This document shows positions 1-46,268 of a stretch of DNA of 64,000 nt, piece after piece. The notes beneath the pieces were generated by a model. That model ran no database searches. It was not told the DNA's origin and saw nothing but the letters and a program-made list of their open reading frames with translations. Positions within the stretch are counted from its first letter, which is position 1. The number at the start of each line of letters is the position of its first letter. This stretch comes from Eledone cirrhosa. Its lineage: Eukaryota. The stretch covers positions 76,818,001 to 76,882,000 of the forward strand of contig OZ024744.1 in assembly GCA_964016885.1 (NCBI GenBank), written 5' to 3'. The translations under genes and the position numbers were made by a program.

Positions 1-294
1 ATTGAACACACAGACATTTCACAGCACGACTACATAATACCAGCACCAATCAAAACACCAACGAACATAAGACTGGTAAGAATATCACAGAAACAATACG
101 CAAACATTAAAATGAAATTCCCCAACACAGTTGGTGATTTCAGAGACCTAGGAGGCACACTCAACCGGAGAGTATACTCGGATATACTCACAGAAGAGCC
201 GACGACCAGCCGAAGGGACGATTCAACGGTCCTTTCACCAGACGATCAAGGTAAGTGTTCCTTTCTCACTTACCCCGTTCCTCACCCAACATGA
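1..294 (+). CDS. C-terminal part of Tx1 ORF1 (copy A), partial
   Basis: Frame 1 is open from base 1 (IEHTDISQHDYIIPAPIKTPTNIRL...) and nearly identical to the end of ORF1 at 5353-7428. Its stop overlaps the ORF2 start (ATGA, 291-294). Confidence 0.85.
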   Translation: MEHTDISQHDYIIPAPIKTPTNIRLVRISQKQYANIKMKFPNTVGDFRDLGGTLNRRVYSDILTEEPTTSRRDDSTVLSPDDQGKCSFLTYPVPHPT

Positions 295-3200
295 CCGTAT
301 TCAGGATCGGAAGTGTAAACGTGCGTGGCTTCAGCTCGGTTTGGAAGCAGGGTCACTTGCTTAACGACCTCAGGTCACTAAACATAGATGTGGTGGCATC
401 AGCGAGACGAGAATCTCCGAAACGCAAGCTTTCGCACCGATCTTCGACGGTTACGAGGTGTATGCCTCTCCGAGCCGTCCGGGAGCGGGGGGCGTAGTGG
501 CTGTGTTGTTTAGGGAAGGCTTGGGTCTCGCCATACGGACCATCCTCCTGAACCCAGAAGGTAAGTCGGTGGTGCTGGACTTAAGCGGCACCGAAGGCAA
601 CGCTTTCAGGCTAGTAGCCGTCTATGCCCCAATAGGGGCAGGACGGCCAGATTTCTTCAGACGTCTAGAGACCTTTCTTGGAACGTCCCGCTCTTTAGTG
701 TTAGTGGGCGACTGGAACGGTATCTTGGATGCACGTTGGGATTGTGTGGGGCTAGTGGATAGGGGAGGAGGGTTCAAGAGCCCACCAACCTGCTCAGACG
801 TTTTGAACTGTCTGGCAGGTATCGACTGGATCACCTGAATGTGCCAATGTGGACATGGACAAACCGCATCGGGTCGTCCAGATCGTATCTCGATAGGGTA
901 TTCTGCAGAGAACTAGATAAGGCTAGTATAAGTTGTCCACAATTTAAAATAGTCGACTAGACAGACCCCAAATTTGTGATCTGTGAGATCGACATAGACA
1001 GACTTCATAGACAAGGGACTGGTTACTGGAAGCTGAATACGTCTTTCCCGGTGCGCAAAGCCTACAGAGACCGGATTAGCGTATTAGTTAAGCGGACTTT
1101 GACGGGTGCGGTCGTCAACAACAGGTGGTTTTTCGCCCTGAAAAAGGCAATTAAAGTAGAGTCGATTAGGTTTAGCAAAGGACTAGTGATAGAGGAAAAA
1201 AGAGTAGAGGGAGAGCTAGTCAGAAAGCTAGAAGAGGCGTTTAGGACAGGCATCGCAACCGACGTGCTTGCGGCGAGATTGACACTCGACCAATTCTTCA
1301 ACGCAAAACGCGAATGCTGCATTGTCAGAGCTAGAGCGCGTGCTCTGAAACACGAGGGGACAAAAGCCGTCCAATGGGCTCGGGTGGCAGAGGCGCGACG
1401 TGGCAATAAAGCCACAATGCGGTCTTTATCTGACCAAAACGAGCGCGTGTTGCTCGAACCCGAGCAGATGTGTGAAGCTTTTCAGCAGCACTTTGCTGAA
1501 CTGTTCGGGAGCACCGGCGGGCCGGGGCGGGGTATGGATTTCAGTGCATACCTCGACGGACTGCCTCGGCTCTCGACGACCGCAGCACAGTGTTGCGGAA
1601 AGCCAATAACACCCAGTGAAATACGGGAAGCGATGGCTAACTGCACGAGGGGTAAATCGCCAGGTTTGGATGGTCTGTCCTAAGAGCTTTGTGCATTTAT
1701 GCCAGACTTGTTCGGTGACCTCTTGGCAGACGTCTACTGCAACTGGCAGCAGAACGGGAGCATTCCCAGTTTTGTGAGCCCGGGAGCGGTGGCGCTGCTG
1801 AGAAAAGACCCGAACAAGGGGGATGTTATCGATAACTTCAGGCCCATAACTCTGCTAAACCCAGAGTTCAAGATTTTGGCCAAGGTGTTAGCAACGAGGT
1901 TAGCGCTTGTCGTCAATGGTCGGGTGGGAGAGGCGCAGACATGCGCCATTCCGGACAGATCCATACACGACAACCTCCATCTCATGCAATACATCATAGA
2001 GAAGGTGGTTAAGGAACCAGGCACGGGTGGGGGCCTGATCAACTTGGATCATTTCAAAGCATTCAATAGGGTCGACCATCGTTATCTGGCGGCGGTCCTC
2101 GAGGCGGCCGGTTTCGGGCTCGTTTTCAGGGTTTGGATCGCTGCGATGTACAGCGACATCTGCTCAGTTGTGAGGGTGAACAGTCACCTGTCGCAGCCGT
2201 TCAGCATCATGCGCTCGGTCCGCCAGGGTTGTCCCCTCTCGTCCCTCTTGTACGTATTGACTCTAGAGCCGTTACAGCGCAAACTGGAGCGATGAGGGGC
2301 GTCCCACGCGAACTAGGATGCGCGAAATCCGAGTCGGCTTACGCCGACGACGTAACCGTTGTGGTTTCGAGCACCACACACGTCCAGATGCTCGGCACCG
2401 CTCTCAAGGAATACGAAGCGGTGACAGGAGCAAAGATAAACCAGGAAAAGTCGGTGGGCTTGCAGCTCGGCACCTGGAGAGGCAAGTCCATGCCGTCCGA
2501 CAGCGTCGTGGGGCGTTGGACGGACGGGCCGGTTAAATTGCTCGGGATCTGGTTCGGACTGGAGCGAGGTGACGAGCAAGGTGGCCTCCTCCATAACCCA
2601 GAAATGGGCCGAGAGGAAGCTGTCCCTGAAAGGCCGGGCGGAGTTGGCGAATGGGTACATCGCATCCGTCATCTGCTACCGCCTCACCGTCATCCCTTGC
2701 CCCGGCCCAACTCTCACCAAAAAGGAGCGCCTCCTCTTTCGCTTTTTGTGGAAGGGACGCGCTCCCATGGTCAGACGATCCATCTGCTGTCAACACCCGT
2801 TGTGTGAGGACTGGGCATGCCATGGCTGATGATGCGCAAACATGCGCTGAGTCTGTGACATCTCTGGTGCTTCCTTGACGGTGAACAGGTGTGGTCGCCG
2901 TTCGCCAGGCACGTTTTCGCACAGCTCGTCTCCTTGACGGAGCTGCAGTCCTGGGTCAGGAAAAGACCGAGGGATGGCTCTTGGTTACTGGAATGTCCCC
3001 AGGCGCTCACTGCCCTCTGCCAGCTGGGCACCAGTATCGGTGGAACATCCATCTCGGCGTTCTATAGAGGACTAGTGGAGGAGAAGTGCGACGACGTTCT
3101 CGGAGAGATCCTGGGCGTCGAAGAAGATCAGCTGTTTGCTCTCTTCCGGAGAACTTTCAGCCTAGGGCCTATGGATAACTTCCAAAAATCCCTGGCCTGG

Positions 3201-3686
3201 TAGTGCTACCGGGGAGCGCTGCCGGTTCAACATAAGCTCTACAGGCACGGAAGTGCCGTCAGCCGAGCCTGTCCGAGATGCGCGCAGAGTGACGAAACCG
3301 TCGTGCACGCACTCGTTCAGTGCCCGAGCATTGCTGACTTGTGGCGCTATGTCGAACAGTTGCTGTCGCGTGTAGGACTGATCCTGTTATCGACTGAGTC
3401 CATTGTGCAGATGGTCTCGCCGTCTTCCTTCGAGGAGGAAGGGCAGGCGGTTTTCATCTGCCTGGTAGCCATGGCGAAAGAGATTGTGTGGTGGACAAGG
3501 TTGAAAGGGTTAAAGACCGATACTTTCCTCTTCGGCGAATCCCTAATTAACTTCTTCAAGTTTCACTTGACGAGGAAAATCAGGGTGGAGAGGCAAGTGC
3601 TGCCTTCTAGCAAGTTTGTTGAAAGGTGAGTGAATGTAGCGAGAATGGTCCGAGTGAACGGGACCGCTCTAAATATACGCCTGTAG
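291..3686 (+). pseudogene. Tx1 ORF2 (endonuclease-reverse transcriptase), disrupted by several frameshifts and stops
   Basis: ORF fragments 255-497, 458-838, 976-1683, 1699-2295, 2133-2807, 2569-2829, 2889-3203 and 3303-3629 tile the protein encoded at 7464-10883. Confidence 0.93.
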
Positions 3687-3982
3687 TTTGAGAAATGGAA
3701 AAATTGAGAGAGGGCGCTTGCCCTGGTGGTCAGGGTGGCCGTGGTATTTTTTGTGGGTTTCGCCACGAGTAACCCTCGGAGGTTTCCCCCGTATTGTGGA
3801 ATTTTTCATTGTTTCAATTTTCATTTTTATTGTTTATATATATATATATTTCTATGTCTTTTTCTTTTTCTATATAAATAATAAAAATCTTTACACGAAC
3901 AAAACCCACATCGTACCGTCCTGTACCGTCCTGTGCCGTCTCTAATGTTTTTCTTGATGTCAGCTCTTGTGATCAATAAAAA

Positions 3983-4000
3983 ATTATTATTATTATTATT
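3983..4000 (+). repeat. (TTA)n tract separating Tx1 copies A and B
   Basis: ttattattattattatt directly between the copy A 3' end and the copy B truncated 5' end. Confidence 0.9.
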
Positions 4001-5120
4001 GATGCGCAGACACGCGCTCAGGCTACGACATCTCCACCTCTTCCTCGACAGTAATCAGGTGTGATCGCTATTTGCTAGACGCGTCTTTCCCCACCTGGTC
4101 TCCTTGATGGAGCTGCAGTCCTGGGTCAAGCGAAGACCGAGAGGGAGCGATTGGAGACTGGAATGTCTTCAGGCGCTCACGGCCCTCGACTAATCGGGCA
4201 ATGTGATCGGTGGAAACTCCATCTTGGCGTTCTATAGAGGATTAGTGGAGGGGAAGAGCGACGACGTGCTTGGGGAAACTCTAGGCGTCAACAAAAATCA
4301 ACTAGCCAATCTCTTCGGAAGAACTTTCGGGCGGGGCCTATGGACAATTTCCAGAAATCCCTAGCCTGGCAGTGCTACCGAGGAACTTTGCCAGTTCGGG
4401 ATAAACTCTACAGGCACGGAAGTGCCGTCAGCCGGGCATGTCCGAGATGCATGCAGGGCGACGAAACGGTCCTGCATGCACTCGTCCAGTGTCCGAGCAT
4501 TGCTGACTTGTGGGTTTATGTCGAACAACTGCTGTCGAGTGTAGGACGGATCCGGCTATCATCTGAGTCCATCTTGAGGATTGCCCCGCCCTCTTCCTTT
4601 AGCCGCGAAGGGCAAGCAGTTTTTATCTGTCTGGTGGCCATGGCGAAAGAGATAGTATGGTGGACGCGTCTGAAAGGGCTGAAGACGAGCACTTACCTCT
4701 TCGGTGATGCCCTGATTAACTTTTTCAAATTTCATTTGAAAAGGAAAATCAGGGTAGAGAGGGAGGTGCTCTCTTCCCAGCATATTGTTGAAAGATGGTT
4801 GAGAGAGGCAAGAATGGCCCGAGTGAATGGGCCTCCTCTCAATATGTGTCTGTAAATTAAAGGTGGAAAACTGGGAGAGAACACTTGCCCTGGTGGTCAG
4901 GGTCACCGTGGCTTTTTTTTTTAATGGGCTTTCTCCACGATGGCCCTCAGAAGTCTCCCTCCTATTGGGGAATTTTTTCATTGTTCCTTTTATTACATCC
5001 TCTGTTTTTTTTTTGTTGGGGGGGTTACACGCAGAAATGCCCATTTGTACCGTCCTGTATTTTCCTGTACTGTCCTTAATGTCTACTTTATGTAAACCCT
5101 TGTGGTCAATAAAGAAAGCA
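4001..5120 (+). mobile_element. Tx1 copy B, 5'-truncated (last ~1.1 kb)
   Basis: Starts mid-ORF2 (matches from ~10028). ORF 4340-4855 is nearly identical to 10368-10883 (CPRC..DETVLHALVQC). 3'UTR with AATAAA at ~5108, followed by (TTA)n. Confidence 0.95.
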
Positions 5121-5352
5121 TTATTATTATTATTATTGAATGCCATGGTTGACGGAGGCTCGGCTCTGTAAGGTATAGTAATTTTTAACCGTTAAAACAA
5201 TTGTAAATTGTTTAAAACTTGAACCAAATTGTTGATAAAGACACCCTCCTCCTCGTGAGAGGGGTCTTTCTGTCCGTTATTTGGCCCTTCGGGGTTAAAT
5301 AACCAGTTATTGGGGTTTTGTACCCAAAATTTCATTTTAAACAAAAAACAAC

Positions 5353-7428
5353 ATGGCTACGAAAAAGAAATTTCATACGTCACTCCCACTCATTCCGTCT
5401 TCTTCTTCCTCAATCATCACTACAGCAGAGAGAAGATTGTCTCTCTCCCTCCCTTCTTTAAATGTGTCTCTCTCCCTCCCTTCTCTTTCGCAAGTGACGA
5501 AAGAAAAGAAAAGTCTCGTGCAAAGCGTGCAAGGTTTCTCCACGACGACGACGACAGCGACGAAACAGGTGTGCGGGAAATACGAAAACCCAGTTCATTC
5601 GTCTGACGTCAGGAATAATAGCAGTAGCAGCCGTAATAACAACAGCAACAGTGACAATGAAAACAACAGTAGCAGCCGCAACAGCATCACCAGCAACACC
5701 AACAACAACCACAGCAACAGCGGCGGAGGCAGTAGTCGTAGTACCTGCAGCAACAACAAAAGTACCAGCAGCTCTGACGGCAACAACAATAGCAGAGAAA
5801 AACCAATCTCATTTGCAGGTATTGCGAAAAACTTGGAAACAATCCTCATAACAAATGAGGAATTAGAGGAAGCGAAGAAGATGGTGACAAAGAACGGACA
5901 CCGAGCAATCTGCAAGGCAGCGGAAAATTTTTTCGAAACCCAAGAGCACTGTACGGTCACGTACCGTACAGTAAGTACAAAATCCCGTAGGGTGGAAAGA
6001 GCCACAGAGGCCCAAATACAAAAAGCCTTGGGGTCTGTGTGGCAGCGGAAAACGCACATCACCCGAGGCAAAAAATATGCCACCGTAGACGTACTTTTTG
6101 CCACACCCCAGGAGGCAAAAGCCCAATCAGTAGTGACCCTAAGGAGCGAGGAAATGGTGTTGGTGCCCTCCTACTGCGGGCAAAAAATTGTGAGGGTCAA
6201 ACTGACCCACGTCCCCCCCCCCCCCCCCGGAATGACCCCTTCTTGGCTGGCCGCGTCTGTCCTCGTCGGAATCGAGGACAAAACAACTGTACTGCAAGTA
6301 CAGAAAAAAGTAAGAGAAGATTGGGTCGGCTCCTCCATTGAGATGCTAATCCAAACCAACCAGGAGTGCATCGAAGCTATCCCGGATGTGATAGACTTCG
6401 ATAACGGCACTCAACTGCCCATAAGTGTTGAGGGCAAACGCCCGAAATGCTTTCGCTGTGGATCGAAGACTCACCTCAGGGCCTTCTGCAACGAGAAGAC
6501 CCTGAGAAAGGAGAAAACCCCCCTCCTTCCGAATCCGGCTCCACGGCTACCAGCAACAGGACAAGCGGCAACCAGGAACGATAGGCCCGTGGCACCCATA
6601 CCCACTCCACGGAAATCAAAAACAGCAGCAGCAGTGGAAATATTAACAACAACAACAGCAATACCAAATGCAGCTGCAACAGAGACTCCAGTGCAAACAT
6701 CACCAACAACAACAAGTGAAAGAGTGGAGCTGGTACCCCTCCCCGACCTCACAGAATCAGACATGGAGTGTGAGGTGGGAGAGGGATGGCAAAAGGTCGT
6801 AAGAAGGCACAAACGCAGAAGCAGCGCATCGTCGCCTTTGAAAAGGGAGGAAAGAAATGAGGAAAGGGTAAAGTCTACTGCAAAGAGACCCACAGCAGCA
6901 ACAACACCAACACCATCACCACCCACACTAGCACCACCATCACCACCGGCGACAACCCCACCGCCAACAACACCTTCAACACCACCACCACAAGCACCAA
7001 CATCGCAAACACAACAACAAAACACACACACCCAGCAACAACGACAAGAAAATAGCAGAACCACACCCCATCCCCAGAAAAACAAATGCACGGCAATAAA
7101 TACACACAACAAGAAACTAATGACTTACATAATTGAACACACAGACATTTCACAACAGGACTACATAATACCAGCACCAATCAAAACGCCAACTAACATA
7201 AGACTGCTAAAAATAGCACAGAAACAATACACAAATATTAAAACGAAATTCCCCAACGCAGTTGGTGATTTCAGGGACCTAGGAGGAACCATCAATCGAA
7301 GAATATACTCAGACATTCTCTTAGAAGAGCCGACGACCAGCCGAAGGGACGATTCAACGGTCCCTTCACCAGACGATCAAGTGAAAAGGGATGTAAAAAC
7401 CATCCCTCCTCTACCAAAAGTACGGTAA
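5353..7428 (+). CDS. Tx1 ORF1 gag-like nucleic-acid-binding protein (691 aa)
   Basis: Uninterrupted ORF. Single CCHC knuckle CFRCGSKTHLRAFC (6448-6489), S/N-rich and P/T-rich low-complexity regions, and a C-terminus conserved with copy A. Confidence 0.92.
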   Translation: MATKKKFHTSLPLIPSSSSSIITTAERRLSLSLPSLNVSLSLPSLSQVTKEKKSLVQSVQGFSTTTTTATKQVCGKYENPVHSSDVRNNSSSSRNNNSNSDNENNSSSRNSITSNTNNNHSNSGGGSSRSTCSNNKSTSSSDGNNNSREKPISFAGIAKNLETILITNEELEEAKKMVTKNGHRAICKAAENFFETQEHCTVTYRTVSTKSRRVERATEAQIQKALGSVWQRKTHITRGKKYATVDVLFATPQEAKAQSVVTLRSEEMVLVPSYCGQKIVRVKLTHVPPPPPGMTPSWLAASVLVGIEDKTTVLQVQKKVREDWVGSSIEMLIQTNQECIEAIPDVIDFDNGTQLPISVEGKRPKCFRCGSKTHLRAFCNEKTLRKEKTPLLPNPAPRLPATGQAATRNDRPVAPIPTPRKSKTAAAVEILTTTTAIPNAAATETPVQTSPTTTSERVELVPLPDLTESDMECEVGEGWQKVVRRHKRRSSASSPLKREERNEERVKSTAKRPTAATTPTPSPPTLAPPSPPATTPPPTTPSTPPPQAPTSQTQQQNTHTQQQRQENSRTTPHPQKNKCTAINTHNKKLMTYIIEHTDISQQDYIIPAPIKTPTNIRLLKIAQKQYTNIKTKFPNAVGDFRDLGGTINRRIYSDILLEEPTTSRRDDSTVPSPDDQVKRDVKTIPPLPKVR

Positions 7429-7463
7429 GTGGTCTTTCCCATCTTTTCCACCCTATTTTAAAC

Positions 7464-10400
7464 ATGACCTCACTCAGAATAGGCAGCATAAATGCGCGTG
7501 GCTTGGGGTCGTCATGGAAGCAGGGTCACCTGCTCAACGACCTCAGGTCACTAAACATAGATGTAGTGGCCATCAGCGAGACCAGAATCTCCGAAGCACG
7601 GGCCTTCGCACCGATCTTCGGCGGCTACGATGTGTACGCATCTCCCAGCCGTCCTGGATCCGGTGGAGGAGTTGCTGTGCTTTTTCGGAGAGGTTTGGAT
7701 CTCGCCATACGGGCCATCTTCCTGGACCCAGAGGGTAAGCTGGTGGTGCTGGACGTGACCAGCGGAGACGGGCAAGCTTTCAGGCTAGTGGCCGTCTATG
7801 CCCCGACAGGAGCAGGGCGGCCTGATTTCTTCCGGCGTCTGGAGACCTTTCTTGGAACGTCTCGCTCTTTAGTGTTAGTGGGCGACTGGAACGGGATCTT
7901 AGATGCACGCTGGGACTGTGTGGGATTAGCGGATAGGGGTGGAGGGTGCAAGAGCCTCACCAACCTGCTCAGGCGTTTTGAACTGTCTGACAGGTACCGA
8001 TTGGATTTCCCGAATGTGCCAATGTGGACTTGGACAAACCGCATAGGGTCATCCAGATCATATCTAGATAGAGTATTTTGTAGGGAAATAGATAGGTCTA
8101 GCATAGGCTGTCCACAATTCAAGATAGTCAGCTACACGGACCACAAATTCGTGATCTGTGTGCTTGACTTAGATAGGCTTCATAGACGAGGACCCGGCTA
8201 CTGGAAGCTAAACGCGTCCTTACCAGCGCGCAAGGCCTACAGAGACCGGATTAGCGAACTAGTTAAGCGGGCGTTGACGGGGGCCATCGTCAACAACAAG
8301 TGGTGGTTTGCTCTGAAAAGAGCGATTAGAATAGAATCGATTAGGTTTAGTAAGGCTTTAGCAATAGAGAAAAATAGAGCAGAGGGAGAACTAGTAAGAA
8401 AATTAGACGAGGCGCTTAGCAAAGGCATTGCGACCGACGTGCTTGCGGCGAAATTGGCCCTTGACCAATTCTTCAATGCAAAGCACGAAGGCTGCGTTGT
8501 CAGAGCTAGGGTGCGTGCTCTCAGACACGAGGGGACGAAAGCCGTTCAATGGGCCCGAGTGGCGGAGGCGCGTCGTGGCAACAAAGCCACGATCCGGTCT
8601 TTGGTGGACCACGACGGGCGCATGCTACTCGATCCCGGGCAAATGTGTGAAGCTTTTCAGCGACACTTCGCTCAGCTGTTCGGGGGCAGCGGTGGGCCGG
8701 GTAGAGGGATGGACTTTAGTGTCTACCTCGACGGACTGCCGCGGCTCTCGGCCACTGAGGCGAAGTGTTGCGAAAAGCCGATAACAGCCGCTGAAGTAAG
8801 GGAGGCAATGACTGGCTGCACAAGGGGTAAATCGCCTGGTTTGGATGGTCTGCCCTATGAACTTTACGTACAGATGCCAGACTTGTTCGGAGGCCTCTTG
8901 GCGGACGTCTACTGCAACTGGCAACAGAACGGGAGAATTCCCAGTTCTGTGAGCCGAGGAGCGGTGGCACTGCTGAGAAAGGATCCGAACAAGGGGGATA
9001 ACATAGACAATTTCCGGCCCATAACTCTGATAAACACAGAGTTCAAGATTTTGGCCAAGGTGCTAGCAAAGAGGTTGGCGCTTGTCGTTGGTGGTCTGGT
9101 GGGAGAGGCGCAGACATGCGCCATTCCCGACAGATCCATCCACGACAACCTCCACCTCATGCGATACATCATAGAGAGGGTAGCTAAGGAACCTGGCACG
9201 GGTGGGTCCTTGATCAATTTAGATCAGTCGAAATCTTTCGATAGGGTCGACCATCGTTACCTAGCGGCAGTCCTGAGGGCGGCTGGCTTTGGGCCCGTCT
9301 TCAGAGGCTGGATCGCTGCCATGCACAGCGACATCTGCTCTGTGGTGAGAGTGAACGGTCACCTGTCGGAACCGTTCAACATCATGCGCTCGGTCCGCCA
9401 AGGATGTCCCCTCTCGTCCCTCTTGTACGTATTGACTCTCGAGCCATTACTGCACAAACTGGAGACGTTGAGGGGAGTCCCGCGCGAACTAGGATGCGGA
9501 AGATCCGTGTCAGCATATGCGGACGATGTCACCGTAGTGGTGTCGAACGCCAAACACATCGAGGCGATCGGCACTACACTAAGAGAATACGAAGCGGTGA
9601 CAGGAGCAATGATCAACCAGGAAAAGTCAGTGGGCCTGCAGCTCGGCACCTGCAGAGGCAGGTCCATGCCGTCCAACAGCGTCGTCGGGCGCTGGACGGA
9701 CGGACCGGTTAAATTGCTAGGGGTCTGGTTTGGTCCGGACCTCCAGACGGACAAAAACTGGGACGAGGTGACGAGCAGGGTGGCTTCTCTCACCCAGAAA
9801 TGGGCGGAGAGGAAGCTATCCCTGAAAGGTCGAGCGGAGGTGGCTAACGCGTACATCGCGTCTGTCATCTGCTACCGCCTGACCGTCGTACCTTGTCCTA
9901 AGCCTCGCCTGACTGCGCTGGAGCGTTTGCTCTTTCGCTTTTTGTGGAAGGGACGTGCTCCGATGGTCAGGCGGTCCATCTGTTGTCAACACCCGCTACG
10001 TGGAGGGCTGGGCATGCCGTGGCTGATGATGTGCAGGCACGCGCTCAGGCTACGACATCTCCACCTCTTCCTCGACGGTGATCAGGTGTGGTCGCCGTTT
10101 GCTAGGCGCGTATTTCCCCAGCTCGTTTCCTTGACGGAGCTGCAGTCCTGGGTCAAGCGAAGACCGAGAGGGAGCGCCTGGAGACTGGAATGTCTTCAGG
10201 CGCTCACAGCCCTCGACCAATCGGGCAATGTGATCGGTGGAAACTCCACCTCGGCGTTCTATAGAGGATTAGTGGAGGGTAAGAGCGACGACGTACTTGG
10301 GGAAACTCTAGGCGTCGACGAAAATCAACTAGCCAATCTCTTCTGAAGAACTTTCGGGCCAGGGCCTATGGACAACTTCCAGAAATCTCTGGCCTGGCAG

Positions 10401-10883
10401 TGCTACCGAGGAGCCTTGCCAGTTCGGGATAAACTCTACAGGCATGGAGGTGCCGTCAGCCGGGCATGTCCGAGATGCGCGCAGGGCGACGAAACCGTCC
10501 TGCACGCACTCGTCCAGTGTCCGAAAATTGCTGACTTGTGGGTTTATGTTGAACACCTGCTGTCGCGTTTAGGACGGATCCAGCTATCATCTGAGTCCAT
10601 CGTGAGGATTTCCCCGCCCTCCTCCTTTAGCCGGGAAGGGCAGGCAGTTTTTATCTGTCTGGTGGCCATGGCGAAAGAGATAGTATGGTGGACACGTTTG
10701 AAAGGGCTGAAGACGAGCACTTACCTCTTCGGTGATGCTCTGATTGACTTTTTCAAATTTCATTTGAAAAGGAAAATCAGAGTAGAGAGGGAAGTGCTCT
10801 CTTCCCAGCATTTTGTTGAAAGATGGGTGAGAGAAGCAAGAATGTCCCGAGTGAAAGGGCCTACTCTGAGTATATATCTGTAA
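7464..10883 (+). pseudogene. Tx1 ORF2 APE endonuclease + reverse transcriptase + C-terminal Zn motif; one in-frame TGA at 10344-10346
   Basis: ORFs 7464-10346 (960 aa) and 10368-10883 are in the same frame. Motifs: NARG, SETR, GDWN, YLDR, TDH, KSPGLDG, LDQSKSFDRV, RQGCPLS, YADD, GGLG, CPRC...H...C. Copies A and B have sense codons (CGG, GGA) at the TGA. Confidence 0.95.
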
Positions 10884-11142
10884 ATTAAAGGTGGAAAACT
10901 GGGAGAGGGCACTTGCCTTGGTGGTCAGGGTCATTGTGGCTTTTTACTGGGCTTTCTCCACAAATGTCCCTCCGAAGTCTCCCCCCTATTGGGGAATTTT
11001 TCATTGTTATTTTCATTGTTATTTTTGTTACATCCTCTGTTTTTGTTTTTTACACGCAGAAATGCCCATTTGTACCGTCCTGCATTGTCCTGCACTGTCC
11101 TTAATGTCTACTTTATGTAAACCCTTGTGGTTAATAAAGAAA

Positions 11143-11145
<3 letters not shown>

Positions 11146-11198
<53 letters not shown>
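11146..11198 (+). repeat. (TTA)n microsatellite shared by the Tx1 3' end and the Dong-like 3' end
   Basis: About 17 perfect TTA units. Confidence 0.95.
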
Positions 11199-11199
<1 letters not shown>

Positions 11200-11500
11200 C
11201 TTGAATCTCAGTCATTGATGTTGGTTAACTGGAAAGTCCGTTGGATTGAATATCAAGCCACTACCTCCAGCCTCAGTTATTCAGGACGTATCGGAGGGTT
11301 CTTGCTGTTCCCAGCAAGCATGCCTTTTGAAGCGTTCCAAAAAGCGTGAAGGGGCCGATTTTCTTTAACCATCCCTGGAAACTTTTGGAGATAGTCCCCA
11401 GTGCGCCTATGACAATCGGGATCACTTTGACTTCATGGCAGTTCCAAATCCTTTTTACCTCCCACTTTAAGTCCTGGTATCGTTTAATTTTCTCCCTTTT
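11199..11500 (-). mobile_element. R4/Dong-clade (restriction-like endonuclease) non-LTR retrotransposon, 5'-truncated 3' fragment
   Basis: Minus strand reads EKIKRYQDLKWEVKRIWNCHEVKVIPIVIGALG...LQKACLLGTARTLRYVLNN*, the typical R4/Dong C-terminus. Short 3'UTR; (TAA)n on both sides (11146-11198, 11500-11543). Confidence 0.85.
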
Positions 11501-11504
11501 TATT

Positions 11505-11535
<31 letters not shown>

Positions 11536-11819
11536 TTATTATTTTAAACTTAGGATATTTAGAACTGGTGGTTAGTTCTGGAAACAGAAAATTACAATTT
11601 GTGTGGAATGGAACAGTTTTTTGGGGGGAAGGGGGGGGGGGGGGGGGGGGGGGGGGCATGGCATCATTCCATATATTGCAAGATTAATAGCTAGTTAGTA
11701 AAGCCAAGGTGCCAATCATTTGTACTGTTTGTGCAAAGGTCAGCTGACATATTGCTACGACAATCTGTAGATGTCAGACCGTTAAGAACTGTGTTAAGAT
11801 CACTTTGGCCGACCTTTCA

Positions 11820-13134: not shown

Positions 13135-13700
13135 CTATATAACACACGCGTCCGCCATCCTTGTAGAGTGCCTCTTGCTCCGGTCCTTGAAAGAGTTCGT
13201 GTGGTTATACATTCGCGACTTAAAGGTCGTAGATGTTGCTTCGATGTAGGTGCGCTTTATATTGTGCGTGCTAACCACACATTTATATACCAGGCCCTTC
13301 GTTAGGCATCTTCCCTGCAGGGGGCACTGTGTGCCCGCTCTGCAGTTGCCTGGCCCTTGATCTGCCACGGCCCTCTCCCGATTCTCTGGGTGATGTTCTG
13401 CCGACACGGTGGTCTCACCTCCGCCACTCATTACCGCCCGGCGTTGGGTTGTATCATCTTCCGCAGGCGTGGCGGCCGCCGCACGGGCCGGGTAGCTGTA
13501 GTTGGAGGACCGGTCTGCGAGGGGGCCCTTCGGGCTCCGATGGATGGTCATTAAGCCGCCGCTGTTGCCGGTCGAGGTTCCCCATCTTCGCCTCGTTGGT
13601 TTTGGCCATGTAGTCGGCCATGTTAGGTGCGGTGGAGAAGGAAAACTTCACCGTATTGTCGGTTCTGTTGTTAGTCTCGTTGCTGCTATGTGGTGATGTT
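13135..13700 (-). mobile_element. Penelope-like element remnant: linker and GIY-YIG endonuclease
   Basis: TVKFSFSTAPNM (cf. PLE TVKxSYSCMPNM), then NCRAGTQCPLQGRCLTKGLVYKCVV...YIEATSTTFKSRMYNHTNSF. Confidence 0.8.
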
Positions 13701-24994: not shown

Positions 24995-27900
24995 ACTCCA
25001 GCATTGACTAAACTAATCCAAACCATTGAAACAGCAATGCTCCAAAAGCTGAACCCAATCTACGAGATATCCACTCAGTGAAAAACACCCTATTCAATAT
25101 ATGGACTCAAAAGCGCACATCTCGCAAATTCGCATTTTGGAATCTCCTAAAAAATAATGGCAAGGCAGATATATATGAAAAGTGGCTAAACTCTACCCCA
25201 ATCATCCTCCCCAAAAAACTCCAAATAAAACCCATCCCCAATGAACCAGAAAACCAACAAAAACCTATGGAAAGATGGCCTTAGAAAAATTTAAAATAGA
25301 AATAGAACTCTTGCGGTTAAGAGCCAACTCCAAAGAAGAAAAATTCAAGTCACTCGACCAACAGATGGAAACAGAAATCTCAAGACAGTCTGAAGGCCTA
25401 CTCTATGAAAAAACTTTAAAACTTTGGAAAGAAAATTGTGAGGATGAAGAACTAACATCCCTCCAGCGATGGGAAAAAAACGCCACCTAGTTCAACAACT
25501 ACGAAATGGGTTTCAAAAATGAACACCTTACAGATAACCCATTTTTAAAACAAGCTAAAACTCACACACCATACTCACAACAAATAACAAAAAAGGTAAC
25601 AAAACGTCCAACATAACCCCAGCAAAACTATGACGATAATCCCAGAATCCATAGACAAAACTATAACCCTACTAAAAAAAAACGAATGTTCCCCAACACA
25701 AGACAGGACTCGATCCGCAGATCACAACCCACACAAAACCTATTCCAAAACCGTAGACCCTAACCCACACAGAACCTGTTCCAAAATCGTAGATCCCAAC
25801 CCACACAAAGGAACAAAATTTACGACCCGGACCATCAACAAACCGAACCTCAATACGTCCGAAAATTTCTATACAACTTCTATACAACAAGGGAAATACC
25901 ATTAGATATAATAATACCCAAAATCATTTTTTAGACCAAGGCTACAGGTGGTACAAACCGATTTAAAAAAAACGAAAATAATCAACCTTTCAAATACAAA
26001 CTTCTCAGCCCAACAAATTAAAATTCTCTCCAAAGGACTGAAATTCACACCATCACCACAATACTCTAACCTCAATGAGATAAATGACGACATCTCACAC
26101 TTCTGTAGAAAATTACGTCTTACAAAAGAAATTTTTTGACAAGGAGAATAACGATCAATCAATTGTACGGAATAAAAGCAGCTACAACCCAACAAAGGGC
26201 AGGAACTGAGTTCTGGACAAATTTTGTGACCACATAGCAACTTTCCCATACCATGAACTACCGCAACCTAAACCCAAACCCAACACGAGTCGAAGGGAAT
26301 GGGCGATTATCCATGAACTAAAAAACAATACTGACATTGTAATTAAGGAAGTGGACAAGGAAAGTACTATCGTCATTATGGATGCTGAACAATATAAAAA
26401 TGCTATGTTCTCTCTCTTACAAGACACTAACTACTATGAACGAGTAAAAAACTACCAGCAATCAAAAACGATGACCAGATTAAACACATTCATTTGTCGA
26501 TACCTAAAAAGGAACGCGATTATTTAACACATTTTGAATCCAAAACAGCAACCTTTACGGACTTCCGAAGATCCACAAGTGTAAAATAATTAACGATGCC
26601 TCAACCTGCGTGAACACACAATACCCCACTGACCTTAAATTAAGACCAATTGTAGCGGGCCCACAATGTGAAACACACAGACTAAGCAGCTTTATAGACA
26701 TACTACTAAAACCAATACCATATCTCAAACACATACCAAGCCTTGTAAGAGACGATCTGGACCTCTTAAACCACCTCCCCAAACATGTCAACAACGACAC
26801 TATTATTGTGTCTTTCGATGTGTTGAATCTCTACACAACGATCCCACACCAATACGGACTAGAAGCAATATGATTCTGGCTAGAGAAATATCCCAATGAG
26901 ATACCTGACAGAATAGAGAAAAGCTTCATCACCGAGGGATTAAAATTTATTTTACAGAACAACTTTTTTGATTTCGATGGTAACACTTACAAGCAAATAT
27001 CGGGGACTGCGATGGGTACAAAAGTCGCCCCAACTGATGCTAAGTTAGTCATAGCATACTTGGAAGTTCAGGTATATGAACACTCCAAATTAAAATACGG
27101 ATTGAACTTCCACAAATATTTATCAGAGAATTGGAAACGCTACTTGGATGATTGTCTTATTCTTTGGTCTCACACACTCGACCAACTGAATGATTTCAAC
27201 AATTTAATTAACGGCATCAATAACCACATCCAATTCACAATGGAATACAGCTAAGATCAACTCCCATTTCTGGACATCTTAATCATAAAAAAGACACAAA
27301 TATTGAAACTGACATACACTACAAACCAACAGATTCCAAACAATACCTGCTATTCACCTCTAACCATCGAAAGCATACGAAGACGAACATCCCTTTTCAC
27401 CTAGCAAGAAGAATTTGCACAATTGTCTCCAATTATGAAACGCGAAATAAAAGACTTCAAGAATTAAAGAAAATTCTGCTCGAAAGACAGTACCTACTAT
27501 TACTAATAAATAAGGAAATAGAAAAGGCTAAAGCAATAGGCATTGATGAATTACGAAAACAGAAACAAATTCAAGGTACGTCCAATATTCTATCATATAT
27601 CTCACCACACAACCCAAGAAATGCGGAAGCATACAACATTATTCACAAGTACATTCCACTATTAAAACAAGACCCAAGAATGGAAAAAGCTCTTGAAACA
27701 CACAAAATAATCAAAAGCAAAAGACAACCGAAATCACTAAAAACATTACTCACTAATACCAAATTACCTACCACAAACCCACAACCAACTGTCAAAAATG
27801 TGGTCGCTCTAATTGTGGAACCTGCACTCACCTCATTAAAGGCAACATGGATTCATTTCAATCAGGACAATATTTTGTTGTAAAAAATCACTTCACTTGC

Positions 27901-28989: not shown

Positions 28990-31130
28990 CATATATGAAA
29001 AAGCAATCTGAGCCCGCCCTGCTCCTTGTGGCTTCTGATGCAGACATCATGTCCGCCATCAGGTCCTTCCCAGCTAGCTGCTGCGGAGGTGTTGATGGTC
29101 TCCGACTAGGCCACCTCAAGGAGTTGACATCCCCCTCTCCGCTGAGGCCGGGCGCCGCCTTCTGAGTGCAATTGTGGCGCTCACCAATAGGCTCATTCAT
29201 GGTGCCCTCGACCCTTACGCCCGAGGCCTCTTTTTTGGGGCCAGCCTCACCGCACTCAGGAAGAAAGAGGGAGGCTCACGCCCAATTGCTGTGGGCAATG
29301 TCTTCCGGAGGCTGGCTACCAAGGTGATCTGCAAGTCCGTAACACACGAACTGGGTGAGGAGTTTAGTCCGGTGCAACTGGGTGTCGGCGTCTCTAGTGG
29401 CTGTGAGGGGGCCGCTCATGCAACCAGGCAGTTCTTCAACAGCTGCCCATCGGAACCGGCATCTAGGGACTCCAGGCACCTCATTATCAAGCTTGACATG
29501 AGGAATGCCTTCAACTCTTTAAGCCGGGATCATCTGCTCGAGACCTACCTCAGCCGAGCCCCCTCTGCCTACCCGTTGGCCTACCTGCCGTATGGAGCCC
29601 CGAGCATGTTCCTTGTTGCTGATACGGTCATACACTCGGCTACTGGGGTCCAACAGGGCGACCCTTTGGGATTCTTCCTGTTCGCCATTGGTATTGACCA
29701 CATTTCCAGGAGTATCACGGCCCCTCTCAACGTTTGGTATCTGGATGATGCTACGTTGGGCAGGCTCGTACGGACGGTCTGTCATGACCTTCAATCGGTG
29801 GTTGCTGCCCTGGCGGGAATCGGCCTCCAGGTCAACTCGGCCAAGTCGGAGGTGGTGAATGTCAGCTTCGATGCTGCGAGCTTTGCAGCCTCCGTCTTGG
29901 ACGTGCGGTCCCTTCTCCGCCAGGTTCAGGTGACCCCCAAAGAGGATGTCCTCATCCTCGGGTCACCGATCCACCCGCCGGCCATCCGCTCCACCATCAG
30001 GTCCAGGTTTCAACAGCTCCAGACTCTCACAAGCCGACTGGGCTTGATTGACGGTCACCCAGCTCTCTTTCTGCTGAAGAACTGCTTCGCCATGCCGAAG
30101 CTCCTCTATACACTCCGCAGCGCTCCGTGCTACACCCAGAGATCTCTCCTCTCTGACCTCGATACTTGTATCCGAGCAGCAGCCGAGGAGATATGCAACG
30201 TCAAGTTTGACGACATAGGGTGGCAACAGGCCACTTTACCTAGCCCAGTAGACGTCCCTCCTCCTTCTCCCCCTGTTGACGTCAAGTCCCCCCAAAGCAC
30301 TTGGGATGCCATCCGGTGCAGCTCGACCAGCACCGCCTTGCTTGTTTTCGTGCGGCCTCCAAGCCCTGCAGTGGTGCCTGGCTCCATGCCCTTCCCGCCT
30401 TCTCCACCGGCACGCAACTAGACAACCATAGCCTGCACATCGGCGTTTCCCTGAGGCTCGGCCTCCGGATCTACCAGCCACACCAATGTCGCTGCGGTTC
30501 CCCCGTGGACTCTTTCGGCCTCCACCCGCTTTCCTGTCGACACAGTGCCGGCCGAATTCCATGCCATGCTGCCCTAAACGAGGTCATTAAGCATGGCTTG
30601 GACGCTGCAGGCTTTCCTTCCCAGCTCGAGCCGGTGGGGCTGGATCGAGGGGACGGCAAAGGGCCAGATGGTATGACCATCTTCCCGTTCCGCAGTGGCA
30701 AACTCCTCGTCTGGGATGCCACTTGCACCGACACTTTCTGCAGCCGCAACCTGGTGCAGTCTGCAACTGACCCAGGTTCTGCTGCACGTCGGGCTGAGGG
30801 GACTAAACTCCTCAAATACCGGTCGCTCTCCGACAGGTTTGCAGTCGTACCCCTGGCAGTGGAGACTTCTGGTGTCTTTGGCCCCAGGGCTACCTCCTTA
30901 CTCACCACCATAGGCGCTGAGCTGGCCAGCCGCAGGTGTGAGCCCCGCGAGTTGGAGTGGATTTTCCAGCTCGTCTCCCTTGCCGTTCTCCGGAGAAACG
31001 CCTTCTCCATTCTGTCCGCCGAAAGTTTGTTATAATATCGTCTTTTTTAATGTATCATGGATTACGTTACTGATTAAATTCCCCATGATTGTTAAAGTGA
31101 AAACAATAAAACAAAATCTTATTTAAATAA
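28990..31130 (+). mobile_element. CRE-clade non-LTR retrotransposon (RT + restriction-like endonuclease), 5'-truncated with an internal deletion and frameshift
   Basis: RPIAVG, QLGVG, KLDMRNAFNSL, QQGDPLG, WYLDD, then CRCG...HPLSC, PDG, WDATCTDT, K..KY, PLAVETSG. The GGLG region expected after QATLP is missing (~30240). AATAAA at ~31105. Confidence 0.88.
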
Positions 31131-32734: not shown

Positions 32735-32922
32735 ATAATTGTTTCTACTTTTGGCACAAGGCCAGCAATTACTCAGTGCATTACTGGTACTTTATTTTAT
32801 CGCCCCCCGTAAGGGTGAAAGGCAAAGTTAACCTCGGCGGGATTTGAACTCAGACCATAAAGCGACGTAACTATGCTGGAAAGCATAGTGTCCGACCCTC
32901 TACCGATACTGCCAATCCCCCT
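32735..32922 (-). mobile_element. tRNA-derived SINE (family 2)
   Basis: B box gagttcaaatcc and body gccgaggttaactttgcctttca. Paralogs at 33086-33242(+), 37305-37467(+), 37568-37755(-), 42216-42403(+), 45610-45700(+), 62650-62820(+). Confidence 0.85.
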
Positions 32923-34129: not shown

Positions 34130-36160
34130 TGTGTGGAATGCATGAGAAAAAGAGACCCTACCCCAAATGGACCCTATAGAGGGGCCAGCAGTACAAGTCA
34201 GCAGCAGCGTAGTAAGTAAGGCAATCAAAGATATGAAGACGAGGAAGGCAACCGGTCCATCGGGTATAGCTGCCGAGATGCTGAAGGCATCTGGGTCTGT
34301 AGGTCACACTATAACCACACGTATTGTTAACCAGGTAATACTAGAAGGGGCCATACCAAAGGATTGGTGCAGCAGCATTATTGTCAACTGCTACGAGGGT
34401 AAAGGTGATGCACTAGATAGAGGAAACTATAGAGGTATAAAGCTGATGGACCAGGTCATGTAAGTAACGGAAAGAGTTATTGCACAATTGATTAGGGACC
34501 GGGTAAAACTAGATGAGATGCAATTTGGGTTTGTGCCAGGAAAAGGCACCACTGATGCCCTCTTCCTTGTGAGGCAGTTACAGGAAAAGTACTTAGCTAA
34601 AAGTAAGCGGCTCTACCCGGCATTCGTCGATCTAAAAATAAGTCTTCCACTGAGTTCCCCGTTCTATAATCTGGTGGGCTCTTAGAAAACTAGGAGTAGA
34701 CGAATGGCTTGTGAAAGCTGTACAAGCCATGTATTGGGGAGCAGTCAGCAAAGTTAAGGTTAACAATGACTATAGTGAGGAATTTAGCATAAAGGTCGGT
34801 GTCAGGGCCCTCTCCTGTTAATTATAGTTTTGCAAGCAATATCGGAGGAGTTTAACCCGGATGCCCATGGGAATTCTTATATGCGGATGATCTCACACTT
34901 ATAGCTGGATCTATGGTGGAACTAGAGAAGAAATTCCAAACATGGAAGCAGGGACTAGAAAGAAAAGGTCTCAAAGTCAATCTGACAAAGACTAAGGTCC
35001 TCGTAAGTAGACGAGAAAACAGAACCCAGATACCCTCAGGGAAATGGCCTTGCTCAGTATGTAGGAAAGGTGTAGGTAGGAACTCCATCCTCTGCCCCAA
35101 ATGCAAACAATGGGTACACAAGAGATGTAGTGGGATCTCAGGAAGCTTAACTAAGAATGTAAGCTTCACATATAGCAGCTGTGCTGGGACAGCAATCAAC
35201 AAACAGCCACAGGAAACAAGCACCACCAATCTCTGAGAGGGCTCTGTAGAAACAGTAGACAGCTTCTGCTACCTAGGTGACCGAATTAGCAGCAGAGATG
35301 TGTGTTCGGAAAGTACAATAACTAGGGTAAGAACGGGATGGAAGAAGTTCAGGGGGCTAGTGCCACTGCTAGGTGCAAAAGACTTTTCCCTCAAAATGAA
35401 AAGCAGACTGTATGATGCGTGTATCCGAAGAGCAATGTTACATGGTAGTGAGACCTGGGCGCTGTCTATAGAAGACTTGCGTAGATTAGAAAGAAACGAA
35501 GCTTGCATGCTCCGATGGTGGTGTAATAGTAATATACGCGAACGGCAAAGCATAAATGAATTGAGAGAGAGACTGAGTATAAGAGGAATCAAATGCTGTG
35601 TGCAAAAGTGGAGGTTATGTTGGCATGGACATGTGATGCGTATGAAGGATGACAGCTGCATAAAAAGGTGCAGAGTACTAGAAGTCAATGGAAACCGCGG
35701 AGTGGGAAGACCCAAGAAGACCTGGGATGAGGTGATAAAAGCCCACCTTACCCAATTACACCTCTCAAAGGCGATGACACAGGACCGTGACCTCTGACGT
35801 CATGCAGTAATACAGAAGACCCGACGTCCTACGGGTACAAGACGAAGCTGAAGCATATAGACAATATGGCCCCACCTCCTACTGCAAAGTGGTCATGGAG
35901 GTGCCACGGCAAGAAACCACCCAGCCCACACTGTAAAGTGGACGTGGAGGTGCCACGGGAAAAAAGCACACCCAGCACTCACTGTAAATGAGGTTGGTGT
36001 TAGGAAGGGCATCCAGCTGTAGAAATCAAGCCAGAATCAGTTCCCGTATGAGCAAGACAAGGTCAGCCGACCGGACACTGCCGACAACAGGACAACCCGT
36101 CTAACCCATGCTAGCATGGAAGAACGGACGTAAAACGATGATGATGATGATGAAGATGAT
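34130..36160 (+). mobile_element. RTE-clade LINE, 5'-truncated and degraded, with a PHD-like finger within the RT region
   Basis: KATGPSG, NYRGIKL, QFGFVPGKGTTDA, FLYADD, GLKVNLTKTKV, FCYLG, MLHGSETW, WHGHVMR, GRPKKTW. 3'UTR ends in (GAT)n. Confidence 0.9.
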
Positions 36161-37304: not shown

Positions 37305-37467
37305 TAGGGTCGGACGCCATGCTTTCCAGCATAGTTACGTCCCTTTACGATCTGAGTTCAAATCCCGCCGAGGTTGCCTTTGCCTTTCATCCTTACGGGG
37401 TCGATAAAATAAAGTACCAGTAATGCACTGGTTAATTGCTGGCCTTGTGCCTAAAGTAGAAACAATT
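37305..37467 (+). mobile_element. tRNA-derived SINE (family 2)
   Basis: gagttcaaatcccgccgaggttgcctttgcctttcatcc...gtagaaacaatt. Confidence 0.85.
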
Positions 37468-37567
37468 ACTCTATATTTACTATTTATATGTTCACAGTAA
37501 AGACTTTACTTTACATAATATCTCACATATCGAATCTACGAGAATTTGTTATCTATTTTATAATAAA

Positions 37568-37755
37568 ATAATTGTTTCTACTTTTGGCACAAGGCCAGCA
37601 ATTATCCAGTGTATTACTGGTACTTTATTTTATCGGCCCTGTAAGGATGAAAGGCAAAGTTAACCTCGGCGGGATTTGAACTCAGACCATAAAGGGCCGT
37701 AACTCTTTCTTGCAAAGTATGGCGTCCGACCCTCTACCGATACTACCAATCCACC
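37568..37755 (-). mobile_element. tRNA-derived SINE (family 2), inverted relative to its neighbour
   Basis: Reverse complement of the 42216-42403 type. Confidence 0.85.
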
Positions 37756-42215: not shown

Positions 42216-42400
42216 GAGCGGTGGATTGGCAGTATCAGTAGAGGGTCGGACGCCATGCTTTGACGCCTAGAGTTACGGCCCTTGCCATTGTGAGTTCAAA
42301 TCCTGCCGAGGTTAACTTTGCCTTTCATCCTTATGAGGTCGATAAAATAAAGTACCAGTAATGCACTGGGTAATTCTGGCCTTGTGCCAAAAGTAGAAAG

Positions 42401-42403
<3 letters not shown>
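42216..42403 (+). mobile_element. tRNA-derived SINE (family 2)
   Basis: A-box-like tggcagtatcagt, B box gagttcaaatcc, shared body. Confidence 0.85.
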
Positions 42404-42465
<62 letters not shown>

Positions 42466-45261: not shown

Positions 45262-46268
45262 ATACAAATATAAAATAAGGCTTAGAATTGACCAAAGGGA
45301 AAATATAAGTTAAATATATCTTATCTCTCTTACTATGGAACAGATATCCTCTCTGTTGATCAAGCAGGTTCTGGCAGAAATAACTATCTTAATTGATTGC
45401 GATAGGAAATACTCTTATTTTAGCTTGTGAAATTGCAGTAAGGGAAAACATTTGTTAAGCCTTCTAGATTTAGGTCGCCTGACATAAAGTTTACTCTAGG
45501 GTGAGACGCTTTTAAGGATTCTTTATTTTAAAGTTCTTTCCAGCGATCTTCCCTTCGGTCAATTCTGAGCCTTAATTCAGACAGTTCTATATTTGTATTT
45601 AGAAGCTTGTCTGGCGATTTGACTTTGCCTTTTATCCTTACGGGGTCGATAAAATAAAGTACTGGGAAATTGCTGACCTTGTGCCTAAAGTAGAAACAAT
45701 TATTCATTGACATGTAATGTATATTACTAACTAATCTTCAAATATGTATTGTTTTCTCTTTGTTAATTTTCCTAAGTTTATTATTACTAATCTGTGGCGA
45801 ATGAGTCCCCCCCCCCCCCCCAATAATCTCAATGATTTGCATTTAACACGATATCTTACTTTCTTCTTTCCTTTTTTTCCTTTTTCTTTCTTTGTTTTTT
45901 CTTTTATTTGTCTCACGAGACTTTCGTGCTCCCTGACATCACGTAACATTGTATTTGTATATGTTATAGCTTAATTTCTATAAGTTATTGTTTTGTCTTA
46001 TTTCTTACTACACAGACAGCACTTTGGTATGTCTCTGATGCCGTGGCCTCGGCTGGACCGTCGGTAGGGGTCAAAACTATATAAGTCCATCTCAACGGCT
46101 GAAAACAATGGAGTTCTGCTTTTTTGTATTGTTATTTTCAAAAAATAATTTGTTAGCGGTTTCCCCTAAATAAATGTTTTTCGTTTTGCCTTGTTTTCAT
46201 TCGTCTTCTCTTTGTTAATTTTCTTAAGTTTATATATATATATACGTGTGTGTGTGTGTGTGTGTATA

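Follow-up and report, generated by a model that had tools for sequence, protein, structure and literature searches.

A head-to-tail LINE array in Eledone cirrhosa

We analyzed a 64,000-nt stretch of the octopod Eledone cirrhosa (contig OZ024744.1, positions 76,818,001 to 76,882,000), referred to below as the window. At its left end stand three copies, A to C, of a long interspersed nuclear element (LINE) that is likely a member of the Tx1 clade. All three lie on the + strand, with short ATT tracts at their junctions and a long tract closing the array, as a preliminary description of the window had proposed. The features of the array are as follows.

1..3982, +: copy A, subfamily A, 80% identical to copy C; end of open reading frame 1 (ORF1), broken ORF2, and 3′ untranslated region (UTR), with the 5′ part beyond the window edge
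291 to 3685, +: broken ORF2 of copy A, from its ATG
3963-3973 and 3975-3980, +: mutated hairpin and AATAAA in the 3′UTR of copy A
3983..4000, +: (ATT)6 tract at the A/B junction, which, like that at B/C, would have the length of one target-site duplication
4001..5119, +: copy B, 5′-truncated with the last ~1.1 kb kept; 92% identical to the D-type described below
5095-5107 and 5108-5113, +: hairpin and AATAAA at the 3′ end of copy B
5120..5137, +: (ATT)6 tract at the B/C junction
5138..5352, +: 5′UTR of copy C, first bases GAATGCC
5313-5325, +: 5′UTR hairpin GGGT-TTTGT-ACCC, related to the 3′ hairpin
5353..7428, +: ORF1 of copy C, 691 aa, one CX2CX4HX4C knuckle; CCHC/RNA-binding type
7464..10883, +: ORF2 of copy C, with apurinic/apyrimidinic endonuclease (APE), reverse transcriptase (RT; YADD), and C-terminal zf-RVT
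10884..11144, +: 3′UTR of copy C, with hairpin AACC-CTTGT-GGTT at 11120-11132 and AATAAA at 11133-11138
11145..11198, +: (ATT)18 tract, common to the 3′ ends of copy C and of an antisense fragment of a restriction-like endonuclease (RLE) element

Copy C is full length (6,007 nt, ending ...GAAATC). Its ORF2 holds a single in-frame stop (10344-10346), and the frame is open over 1,139 aa in other natural copies. Domains PF03372, PF00078, and PF13966 scored above the Pfam cut-off, the catalytic APE residues are present, and the nearest named homolog, with 69% identity, comes from Argonauta hians. ORF1 matched CCHC/ZCCHC3-RBD clusters with Atlas scores of 0.90-0.94; in Pfam, it matched neither zf-CCHC nor Transposase_22 and gave only a sub-cutoff MBD match. 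A 5′ self-cleaving ribozyme was considered and rejected, no Rfam family reaching its gathering score in window positions 3600-5700.

Over 4,073 columns, copies A and C share 80% identity; B and C share 90-92%. In the 3′UTR, identity is 78% for A against either B or C and 92% between B and C. Moreover, ~43 nt of the stretch spanning the end of ORF1 and the inter-ORF region of C are missing from A. Copy B corresponds to C from about position 4,890 onward, and both A and B carry several stops and frameshifts. These data bear out the earlier statements that A differs from B and C in its 3′UTR and inter-ORF region and that B is 5′-truncated. The proposal of separate insertions from several subfamilies is supported for the window, given 80-92% identity and the truncation of B, but it does not extend to every array, some elsewhere being tandem-duplicated. 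Subfamily A is represented by 1,738 exact matches to its 3′ 21-mer genome-wide. Copy A itself combines a C-like ORF1 (89-91%) with its 80% ORF2. Its 5′ part is joined, at ~940 nt before the window (L031:9050-9070), to a D-type ORF2; no ATT tract lies between the two, and a short GCGG overlap marks the fusion point. This fusion is likely a deletion inside an older array. The 10 kb upstream of the window hold further Tx1, short interspersed nuclear element (SINE), and Dong-like pieces.

Full-length copies begin in ATT repeats

Genome-wide counts were obtained by pattern searches of the 3.0-Gb genome, and the first 92 by position of 6,470 3′-anchored copies, on contig C1, were read in detail. The exact first 24 nt of copy C occurred 1,628 times, and in-phase ATTATTATT, i.e. 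(ATT)3, preceded 1,585 of them (97.4%). As a control, we scored the remaining 52 kb of the window, where in-phase ATTATTATT preceded just 1 of 103,910 positions, which excludes ATT junctions by chance. Six-unit tracts have 44,770 in-phase ends genome-wide.

Every one of the 30 loci read for this feature had an ATT tract at the 5′ end. Among the 92 copies, 57 have a full-length 5′ end and all 57 are preceded by an ATT tract; these ends fall into three unrelated types, C, D, and E. D-type ends followed in-phase (ATT)3 at 2,387 places, a count from non-nested patterns for which no percentage is given. Four exceptions among the first 100 5′ ends had a mutated or short ATT run nonetheless. The left tract was at least 15 nt long in 52 of 54 scored full-length copies; by a script rule, it was the 3′ end of another copy in 15 of the 54, and the others were SINE tails, Dong ends or junctions, compound or interrupted microsatellites, and unique DNA. 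At the other end, ATT directly followed the element in 91 of 92 copies. A relaxed 3′ 23-mer found 12,599 ends with (ATT)4 next in 7,670, the total including the TATC family described below.

Target-specific Tx1 elements have been defined by a single sequence type in more than 20% of flanks (PMC4494074; this and the other papers cited here are drawn on in part). One sequence type occupied 97.4% of C-type 5′ ends. The preliminary description had allowed that TTA might be only a 3′ tail, with non-TTA sequence at most 5′ junctions. We found the opposite: ATT precedes 97.4% of full-length C-type 5′ ends, and tabulating the 5′ flanks places it also at the 2,387 D-type ends and beside half of the truncated copies. 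ATT is therefore supported as the target, not merely a tail.

The D-type carries an unrelated 5′UTR and ORF1 on an ORF2 94% identical to that of C (L064, L069, L101, L126, and others), and ORF1 swapping is common in this lineage. The C-type lineage is young, since both ORFs are open in 10 of 54 full-length copies.

Truncated copies and target-site duplications

We looked for ATTATT within 18 nt of the junction in the 35 truncated or broken copies and found it in 18, against a background of 1.2%. (CTT)n occupied 2 of the 35 junctions. Informative duplications were found in truncated copies L085 (16 bp), L063 (13 bp), and L048 (11 bp), all beginning ATTA, and the tandem pair L073/L074 showed one of 34 bp.

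Stacking and array growth

Of the first 100 C-type 5′ ends, 37 lie no more than 10 kb from another, and adjacent pairs were on the same strand in 22 cases and on opposite strands in 1, with 0.76 pairs expected. Beyond the 3′ tract, 60 of 92 copies meet a further element: in 22 cases another copy, in 28 a Dong-like 3′ end in antisense, and in 10 a SINE. Members of the array L136-L140 are 32-68 substitutions apart, and many of these substitutions are common to unlinked copies, a pattern of separate insertions by several source copies. Between L132 and L134, which are not linked, there are 9 substitutions in 6 kb, and array neighbors are usually closer to unlinked copies than to each other.

Some arrays also grow by duplication. 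L122 and L123 have the same truncation point, L016-L019 repeat ~125 bp of flank, the repeated unit of L138-L140 includes ~900 bp of Dong, and L073/L074 have a common interrupted tract and are each other's closest match, with their differences mostly in the 3′ halves. These repeated truncation points and flanks are what would be expected if ATT were merely a 3′ tail and arrays arose by tandem duplication or unequal crossing over. That explanation is largely refuted and the least probable of those we weighed: the window copies are only 80-92% identical with B truncated, most 5′ tracts are not another copy's tail, and array neighbors usually resemble unlinked copies more. Tandem duplication thus accounts for some arrays, not for targeting. 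In L013/L014, L016-L019, and L073/L074, tandem full-length copies repeat 34-125 bp of flank up to, and no further than, the 5′ end of the resident copy; either annealing of cDNA to that end or unequal crossing over could produce this pattern.

A SINE with the same 3′ hairpin

An abundant SINE of ~190 nt has 137,049 exact 3′ 26-mers, with AATTA next in 117,891; a longer variant, SINE2, has 1,691 exact 3′ ends. By resemblance, its head would be tRNA-derived and its core Deu/Meta-like; ARAGORN found no tRNA in the window. Duplications of at least 10 bp flank 21 of 30 copies, with sizes of 11-21 bp, and all 21 begin ATTA. The base before the duplication was C in 13, T in 7, and A in 1. Copies with a duplication lie mostly in single-copy DNA.

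We compared the last 40 nt of SINE and LINE ends. The match beat 300 of 300 shuffles in eight of nine comparisons, and in the ninth, 5 of 300 shuffles scored as high; the SINE end scored 0 against both Dong ends. In both LINE and SINE, a hairpin with the loop CUUGU lies 12-14 nt before the repeat, on stems AACC/GGUU (C), GCC/GGC (A and the further ATT family F), or UGGC/GCCA (SINE). At the second stem pair, LINE 3′ ends have C-G where SINEs have G-C. Across 27 natural rows, 88.9% of hairpin cells pair and four of four pairs change on both sides; slid controls reached at most 55%, and 0 of 500 shuffles paired as well, a count that is no probability because the rows are related and the structure was read from them. 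The insertion signature is also alike, with duplications of 11-21 bp for the SINE and 11-16 bp for informative truncated LINE copies. Given the common covarying CUUGU hairpin and the ATTA-starting 11-21-bp duplications, the SINE was likely mobilized by the Tx1 lineage.

Several points, besides the limit on the shuffle count, weigh against this link and against the insertion model that builds on it. The pattern used to draw the duplication sample itself ends in ATTA, 9 of 30 SINE copies have no duplication, and the longer SINE2 variant has one in only 8 of 30. Besides the Tx1 LINE, the comparison covered only the two Dong-like 3′ ends among the LINEs of this genome.

Hairpins of this kind recur elsewhere. 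The 3′ hairpin is found again in the C and D 5′UTRs, 30-45 nt ahead of ORF1 (window 5313-5325; L069, L086), and the D 5′UTR hairpin is closely like the SINE tail. Given the hairpin in these 5′UTRs too, it may have been borrowed from LINE to SINE or the reverse; either fits. The 3′ hairpin of the F-type and the first stem-loop of the L207 U2 gene are alike, possibly by chance. Five loci (L046, L072, L087, L088, L091) hold head-to-head inverted dimers of the SINE 3′ half, with repeat tracts on both sides.

The SINE also bears on how much sequence the LINE needs. Its tails hold only one to three units in 29 of 30 copies, and truncated LINE copies are less strictly within tracts than full-length ones, as if a short ATTAT site sufficed and the long tracts around LINEs came from selection against copies elsewhere or from post-insertion lengthening. 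We regard this as improbable. SINE tails that adjoin a LINE 5′ end are 27-72 nt long, long tracts already surround very young copies (9 substitutions in 6 kb), and a non-repeat duplication was seen in no full-length copy (30 plus 52 with both ends), barring the interrupted tract of L074.

A sister family in TATC repeats

Fetching 18 exceptions among the 3′ ends without (ATT)4 uncovered a second family, G. Its ORF2 is 67% identical to that of C and open over 1,148 aa in L303, and its last 23 nt are at most one base from those of C and A. TATCTAT came next at 942 of the 1,205 exact G 3′ ends, and ATTATT at none. Full-length L301 (rc 2183-8000) is flanked by (CTAT)16 and (CTAT)7, and G duplications of 11-22 bp are frequent. 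In a DNA tree of 53 of 153 ORF2 ends, the ATT families (C/D/B, A, F) fell on one side and G on the other. The C and G endonuclease (EN) domains are 61% identical; the loop corresponding to βB6-βB5 reads TNRIGSSR in C and VNRSGTSR in G. No intact endonuclease of subfamily A or F was recovered.

Several G copies (from L301, L303, and L311-L340) lie in a ~60-bp minisatellite, at CTATCAAY|AATATT. At L284/L305, a G relative (~76% DNA identity) runs at its 3′ end into ACTCTCTC; this one locus possibly marks a third, (CT)n-associated family.

Two full-length G copies, L302 and L303, inserted in a non-CTAT minisatellite, carry CTATCTATCT, ~2.5 CTAT units, between the duplication and the 5′ end. Some repeat units can thus apparently travel with the element RNA, and by extension the 5′ tract of the ATT families could be a leader on that RNA, the 97% then reflecting element structure rather than target. 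This is very improbable. We fetched a further 40 copies (10 of them without a 3′ end found), and none of the 30 full-length C/D copies with both ends had a duplication plus a carried leader; among 52 earlier copies, one did, and an abutting duplication fits that copy too. C copies with just two or one ATT exist (L372, L373), and truncated copies, which are unable to carry a 5′ leader, are ~40-fold enriched for ATTATT.

Proposed insertion mechanism

Our preferred reading, to which we assign a probability of roughly 0.7, is a young, high-copy LINE lineage of the L1 group (likely Tx1) that sits in (ATT)n in fixed phase and orientation and likely inserts through target-primed reverse transcription with a sequence-preferring APE. 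The ORF2 protein (ORF2p) would bind the CUUGU hairpin directly upstream of AAUAAA and nick the (AAT)n strand at about 5′-ATAAT^R-3′, with L1-like pyrimidine^purine chemistry. The RNA 3′ end would offer a few AUU for pairing with the freed end, which would prime the cDNA, and a second nick would follow ~11-21 nt downstream, after an ATT. A tract of at least 15 nt would remain on each side as a fresh target, so that copies stack, and the orientation would be fixed because the two repeat strands are asymmetric. The same machinery would copy the SINE in trans with a looser requirement, Y|ATTAT.

How far the enzyme, rather than the RNA tail, selects the site is the point on which the nearest alternative turns. 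A relaxed AT-rich nicker could have its site set mainly by pairing of an (AUU)n read-through tail, C and G having inherited different tails. The βB6-βB5 loop has equal length in C and G, with three of eight residues different, and the SINE requires ATTAT only, both as this alternative would have it. Tail pairing has been proposed for RTE elements (PMC6007223), and L1-EN nicking is looser than integration (PMC1950540). We nevertheless consider it unlikely. C or T precedes the SINE duplication in 20 of 21 cases, outside the region of tail pairing; 7 of 30 G ends begin AATA, a poor fit to a TATC tail; and the target switch is clean: common as both repeats are, ATTATT follows 0 of the 1,205 G ends. 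Moreover, the C and G EN domains are just 61% identical. From these sequence patterns, namely the bias toward a pyrimidine at -1 and the sharp separation of C and G, we favor a real contribution of the enzyme to target choice.

Several observations speak against the sequence-preferring APE model. The endonuclease preference for (TTA)n is read from junctions, and tail pairing could contribute; the CTATCTATCT of L302 and L303 shows that repeat units may be carried by the element. Duplications are invisible in pure tracts, leaving just 4 of 92 LINE copies informative, and in L067 and L095 the right side offers a single ATT and no room for a duplication. The 17 truncated copies without ATTATT have a single ATT in 7 cases, uninformative because the background is ~15%, and none in 10; three of the 17 (L124, L130, L133) are joined directly to antisense Dong by BLAST. 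The 18 positives include a tandem set of three (L121-L123). Finally, a search for an empty allele at L073 in contigs from four public runs gave a fragmented, repetitive flank, and none bridged the site.

A broader picture, which we hold tentatively at a little under even odds, is that one Tx1 lineage built much of the octopod repeat landscape through a CUUGU-stringent, >100,000-copy SINE and sister families with endonucleases retuned to (ATT)n and (TATC)n. SINEs make up ~12% of the O. vulgaris genome, with no partner LINE named in the text available (PMC13282606), and stringent SINE partners are rare in the L1 group (three in PMC3747384). A new microsatellite target alone would be incremental, Tx1 target switching being known. 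If the broader picture is true, the lineage offers a natural experiment on whether enzyme or RNA tail chooses a LINE target. Two young sister families with intact ORF2s, 67% identity, and near-identical last 23 bases have non-overlapping targets in one genome, so that endonuclease and RNA-DNA pairing could be set against each other by swaps. APE and RLE elements on opposite strands of one repeat, in mixed nests, also bear on the origin of ATT microsatellites and repeat hotspots.

Clade placement and related systems

The preliminary description had named the copies Tx1. The general part of that assignment stands: the ORF2 plan of N-terminal APE, RT, and C-terminal zinc domain is of L1-group type, and ORF1 is of the CCHC kind. 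Tx1 ORF1 proteins have a CCHC knuckle and RNA-binding domains rather than Transposase_22. The finer placement drew moderate support from RT trees, quick ones without bootstrap whose references were defined by U2/5S flanks and included no named Repbase or vertebrate L1 rows: the copies were sister to a U2-inserted group with 76 rows (SH-aLRT 91) and with 44 rows after 32 were dropped (SH-aLRT 88). Octopod rows and a group of proteins of ~43% identity formed one clade (100), apart from DUF4283-type L1 (95-98). Among the metagenome references, L207 is inserted in a U2 gene and shows a ~15-bp duplication, and both L211 and L216 terminate in 5S rRNA; we apply the names Keno and Mutsu to these U2- and 5S-inserted elements. 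Such target-specific elements are so named in PMC4494074. Membership in the Tx1 clade is thus likely on tree and domain evidence. Homolog searches and the cluster look-up returned no named Tx1 protein.

The ~43%-identity proteins (P0002-P0097) number hundreds per cluster and form the sister group in both trees; one metagenome scan for their targets found nothing. The other scan returned relatives at 25-36% identity only, with a four-unit ATT run in 2 of 80.

Three other assignments were rejected. Vertebrate-type L1 does not fit 3′ ends that run into ATT in 91 of 92 copies, nor the lack of a Transposase_22 match in Pfam. The Dong/R4 clade is excluded for these copies by the APE domain and two ORFs, the RLE motifs belonging to neighbors. 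A Kibi/Koshi target, (TC)n or (TTC)n, is excluded by the ATT and TATC found here.

Among solved structures, the best relative is human L1 ORF2p (PDB ID codes 9k6g and 8uw3), with E 1e-51 over EN and RT, far above R2. Human L1 is alike in its duplication length and in the pyrimidine^purine nick proposed here, but the octopod elements have no poly(A) tail, a CCHC-type ORF1, and strong repeat targeting. Kibi in (TC)n, Koshi in (TTC)n, and the crocodilian Tx1 elements in (TTCC)n/(TTTC)n are also two-ORF APE elements in microsatellites, in one orientation (PMC4494074, PMC3812793); the present family is set apart from them by target, its repeats not being pyrimidine-only, and lives in an octopod host. 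Keno is the nearest target-defined relative in both RT trees, with an ORF2 of ~1,150 aa and the ~15-bp duplication of U2-inserted L207, but identity is ~29% and the target here is a microsatellite. The crocodilian Tx1-Mar is likewise Keno-related, changed its target, and likely drives a SINE (PMC4494074). What ties it to SINEU is a common target together with U1/U2 5′ heads; the tie found here is a 3′ hairpin. UnaL2/UnaSINE and monocot L1 pairs likewise show a conserved loop, a compensating variable stem, and a short tandem-repeat end (PMC3747384); in the present pair, the stretch in common is just ~30 nt.

Dong (R4 clade) is specific for TAA repeats (PMC3812793), and Dong-R4 and L1-Tx1 are both listed as recently active in Octopus vulgaris (PMC13282606). 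Dong thus uses the same microsatellite, but with a single ORF, an RLE, the opposite strand, and no 3′ motif of this kind; the Tx1 lineage and Dong are a convergence on one target. Published Tx1 targets comprise TC, TTC, TTCC, TTTC, U2, U5, 5S, satellites, and transposons, with TAA given for Dong (PMC4494074, PMC3812793, and others), and a SINE survey lists L1-clade tails in only three SINEs, the word "octopus" being absent from the text available (PMC3747384). In the literature searched, which did not cover Repbase, there was no report of a Tx1 element targeting ATT/TAA or GATA, nor of a Tx1 partner for octopus SINEs. Microsatellite-targeting Tx1 elements are therefore known, and the ATT and TATC targets and the SINE link were not found reported; in our judgement, there is a substantial chance, somewhat less than even, that an ATT-targeting Tx1 is already in Repbase.

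Dong-like neighbors and other repeats of the window

Dong-like elements are the commonest neighbors of the Tx1 copies and use the same tracts on the opposite strand. They have one ORF with a C-terminal restriction-like endonuclease, and the 3′ motif of the Tx1 LINE is not in their ends. Compound (CTT)n(ATT)n tracts (L094, L056, L058, L004) often form the 5′ junction of truncated antisense copies of a second Dong-like family. The remaining features of the window are as follows.

11199..11496, -: RLE-type (Dong/R4-like) fragment, 5′-truncated, tail-to-tail with copy C
11500..11543, +: (TTA)n tract of ~15 units, 5′ junction of the RLE fragment
29096-31035, +: GC-rich RT element, frameshifted; PF00078, RLE-like C-terminus
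32736-32921 (-), 37306-37468 (+), 37569-37755 (-), 42218-42405 (+), and 45619-45702 (+): SINE copies, 82-93% identical to L146
36392-37243, 40488-40959, and 57923-62000: long low-complexity arrays of (CCACCA)n/(GGT)n type

We take the element at 29096-31035 to be CRE-like. By their motifs, the stretches at 13135-13647 (-) and 27224-27883 (+) are presumably of Penelope type and that at 35237-35797 (+) of RTE type.

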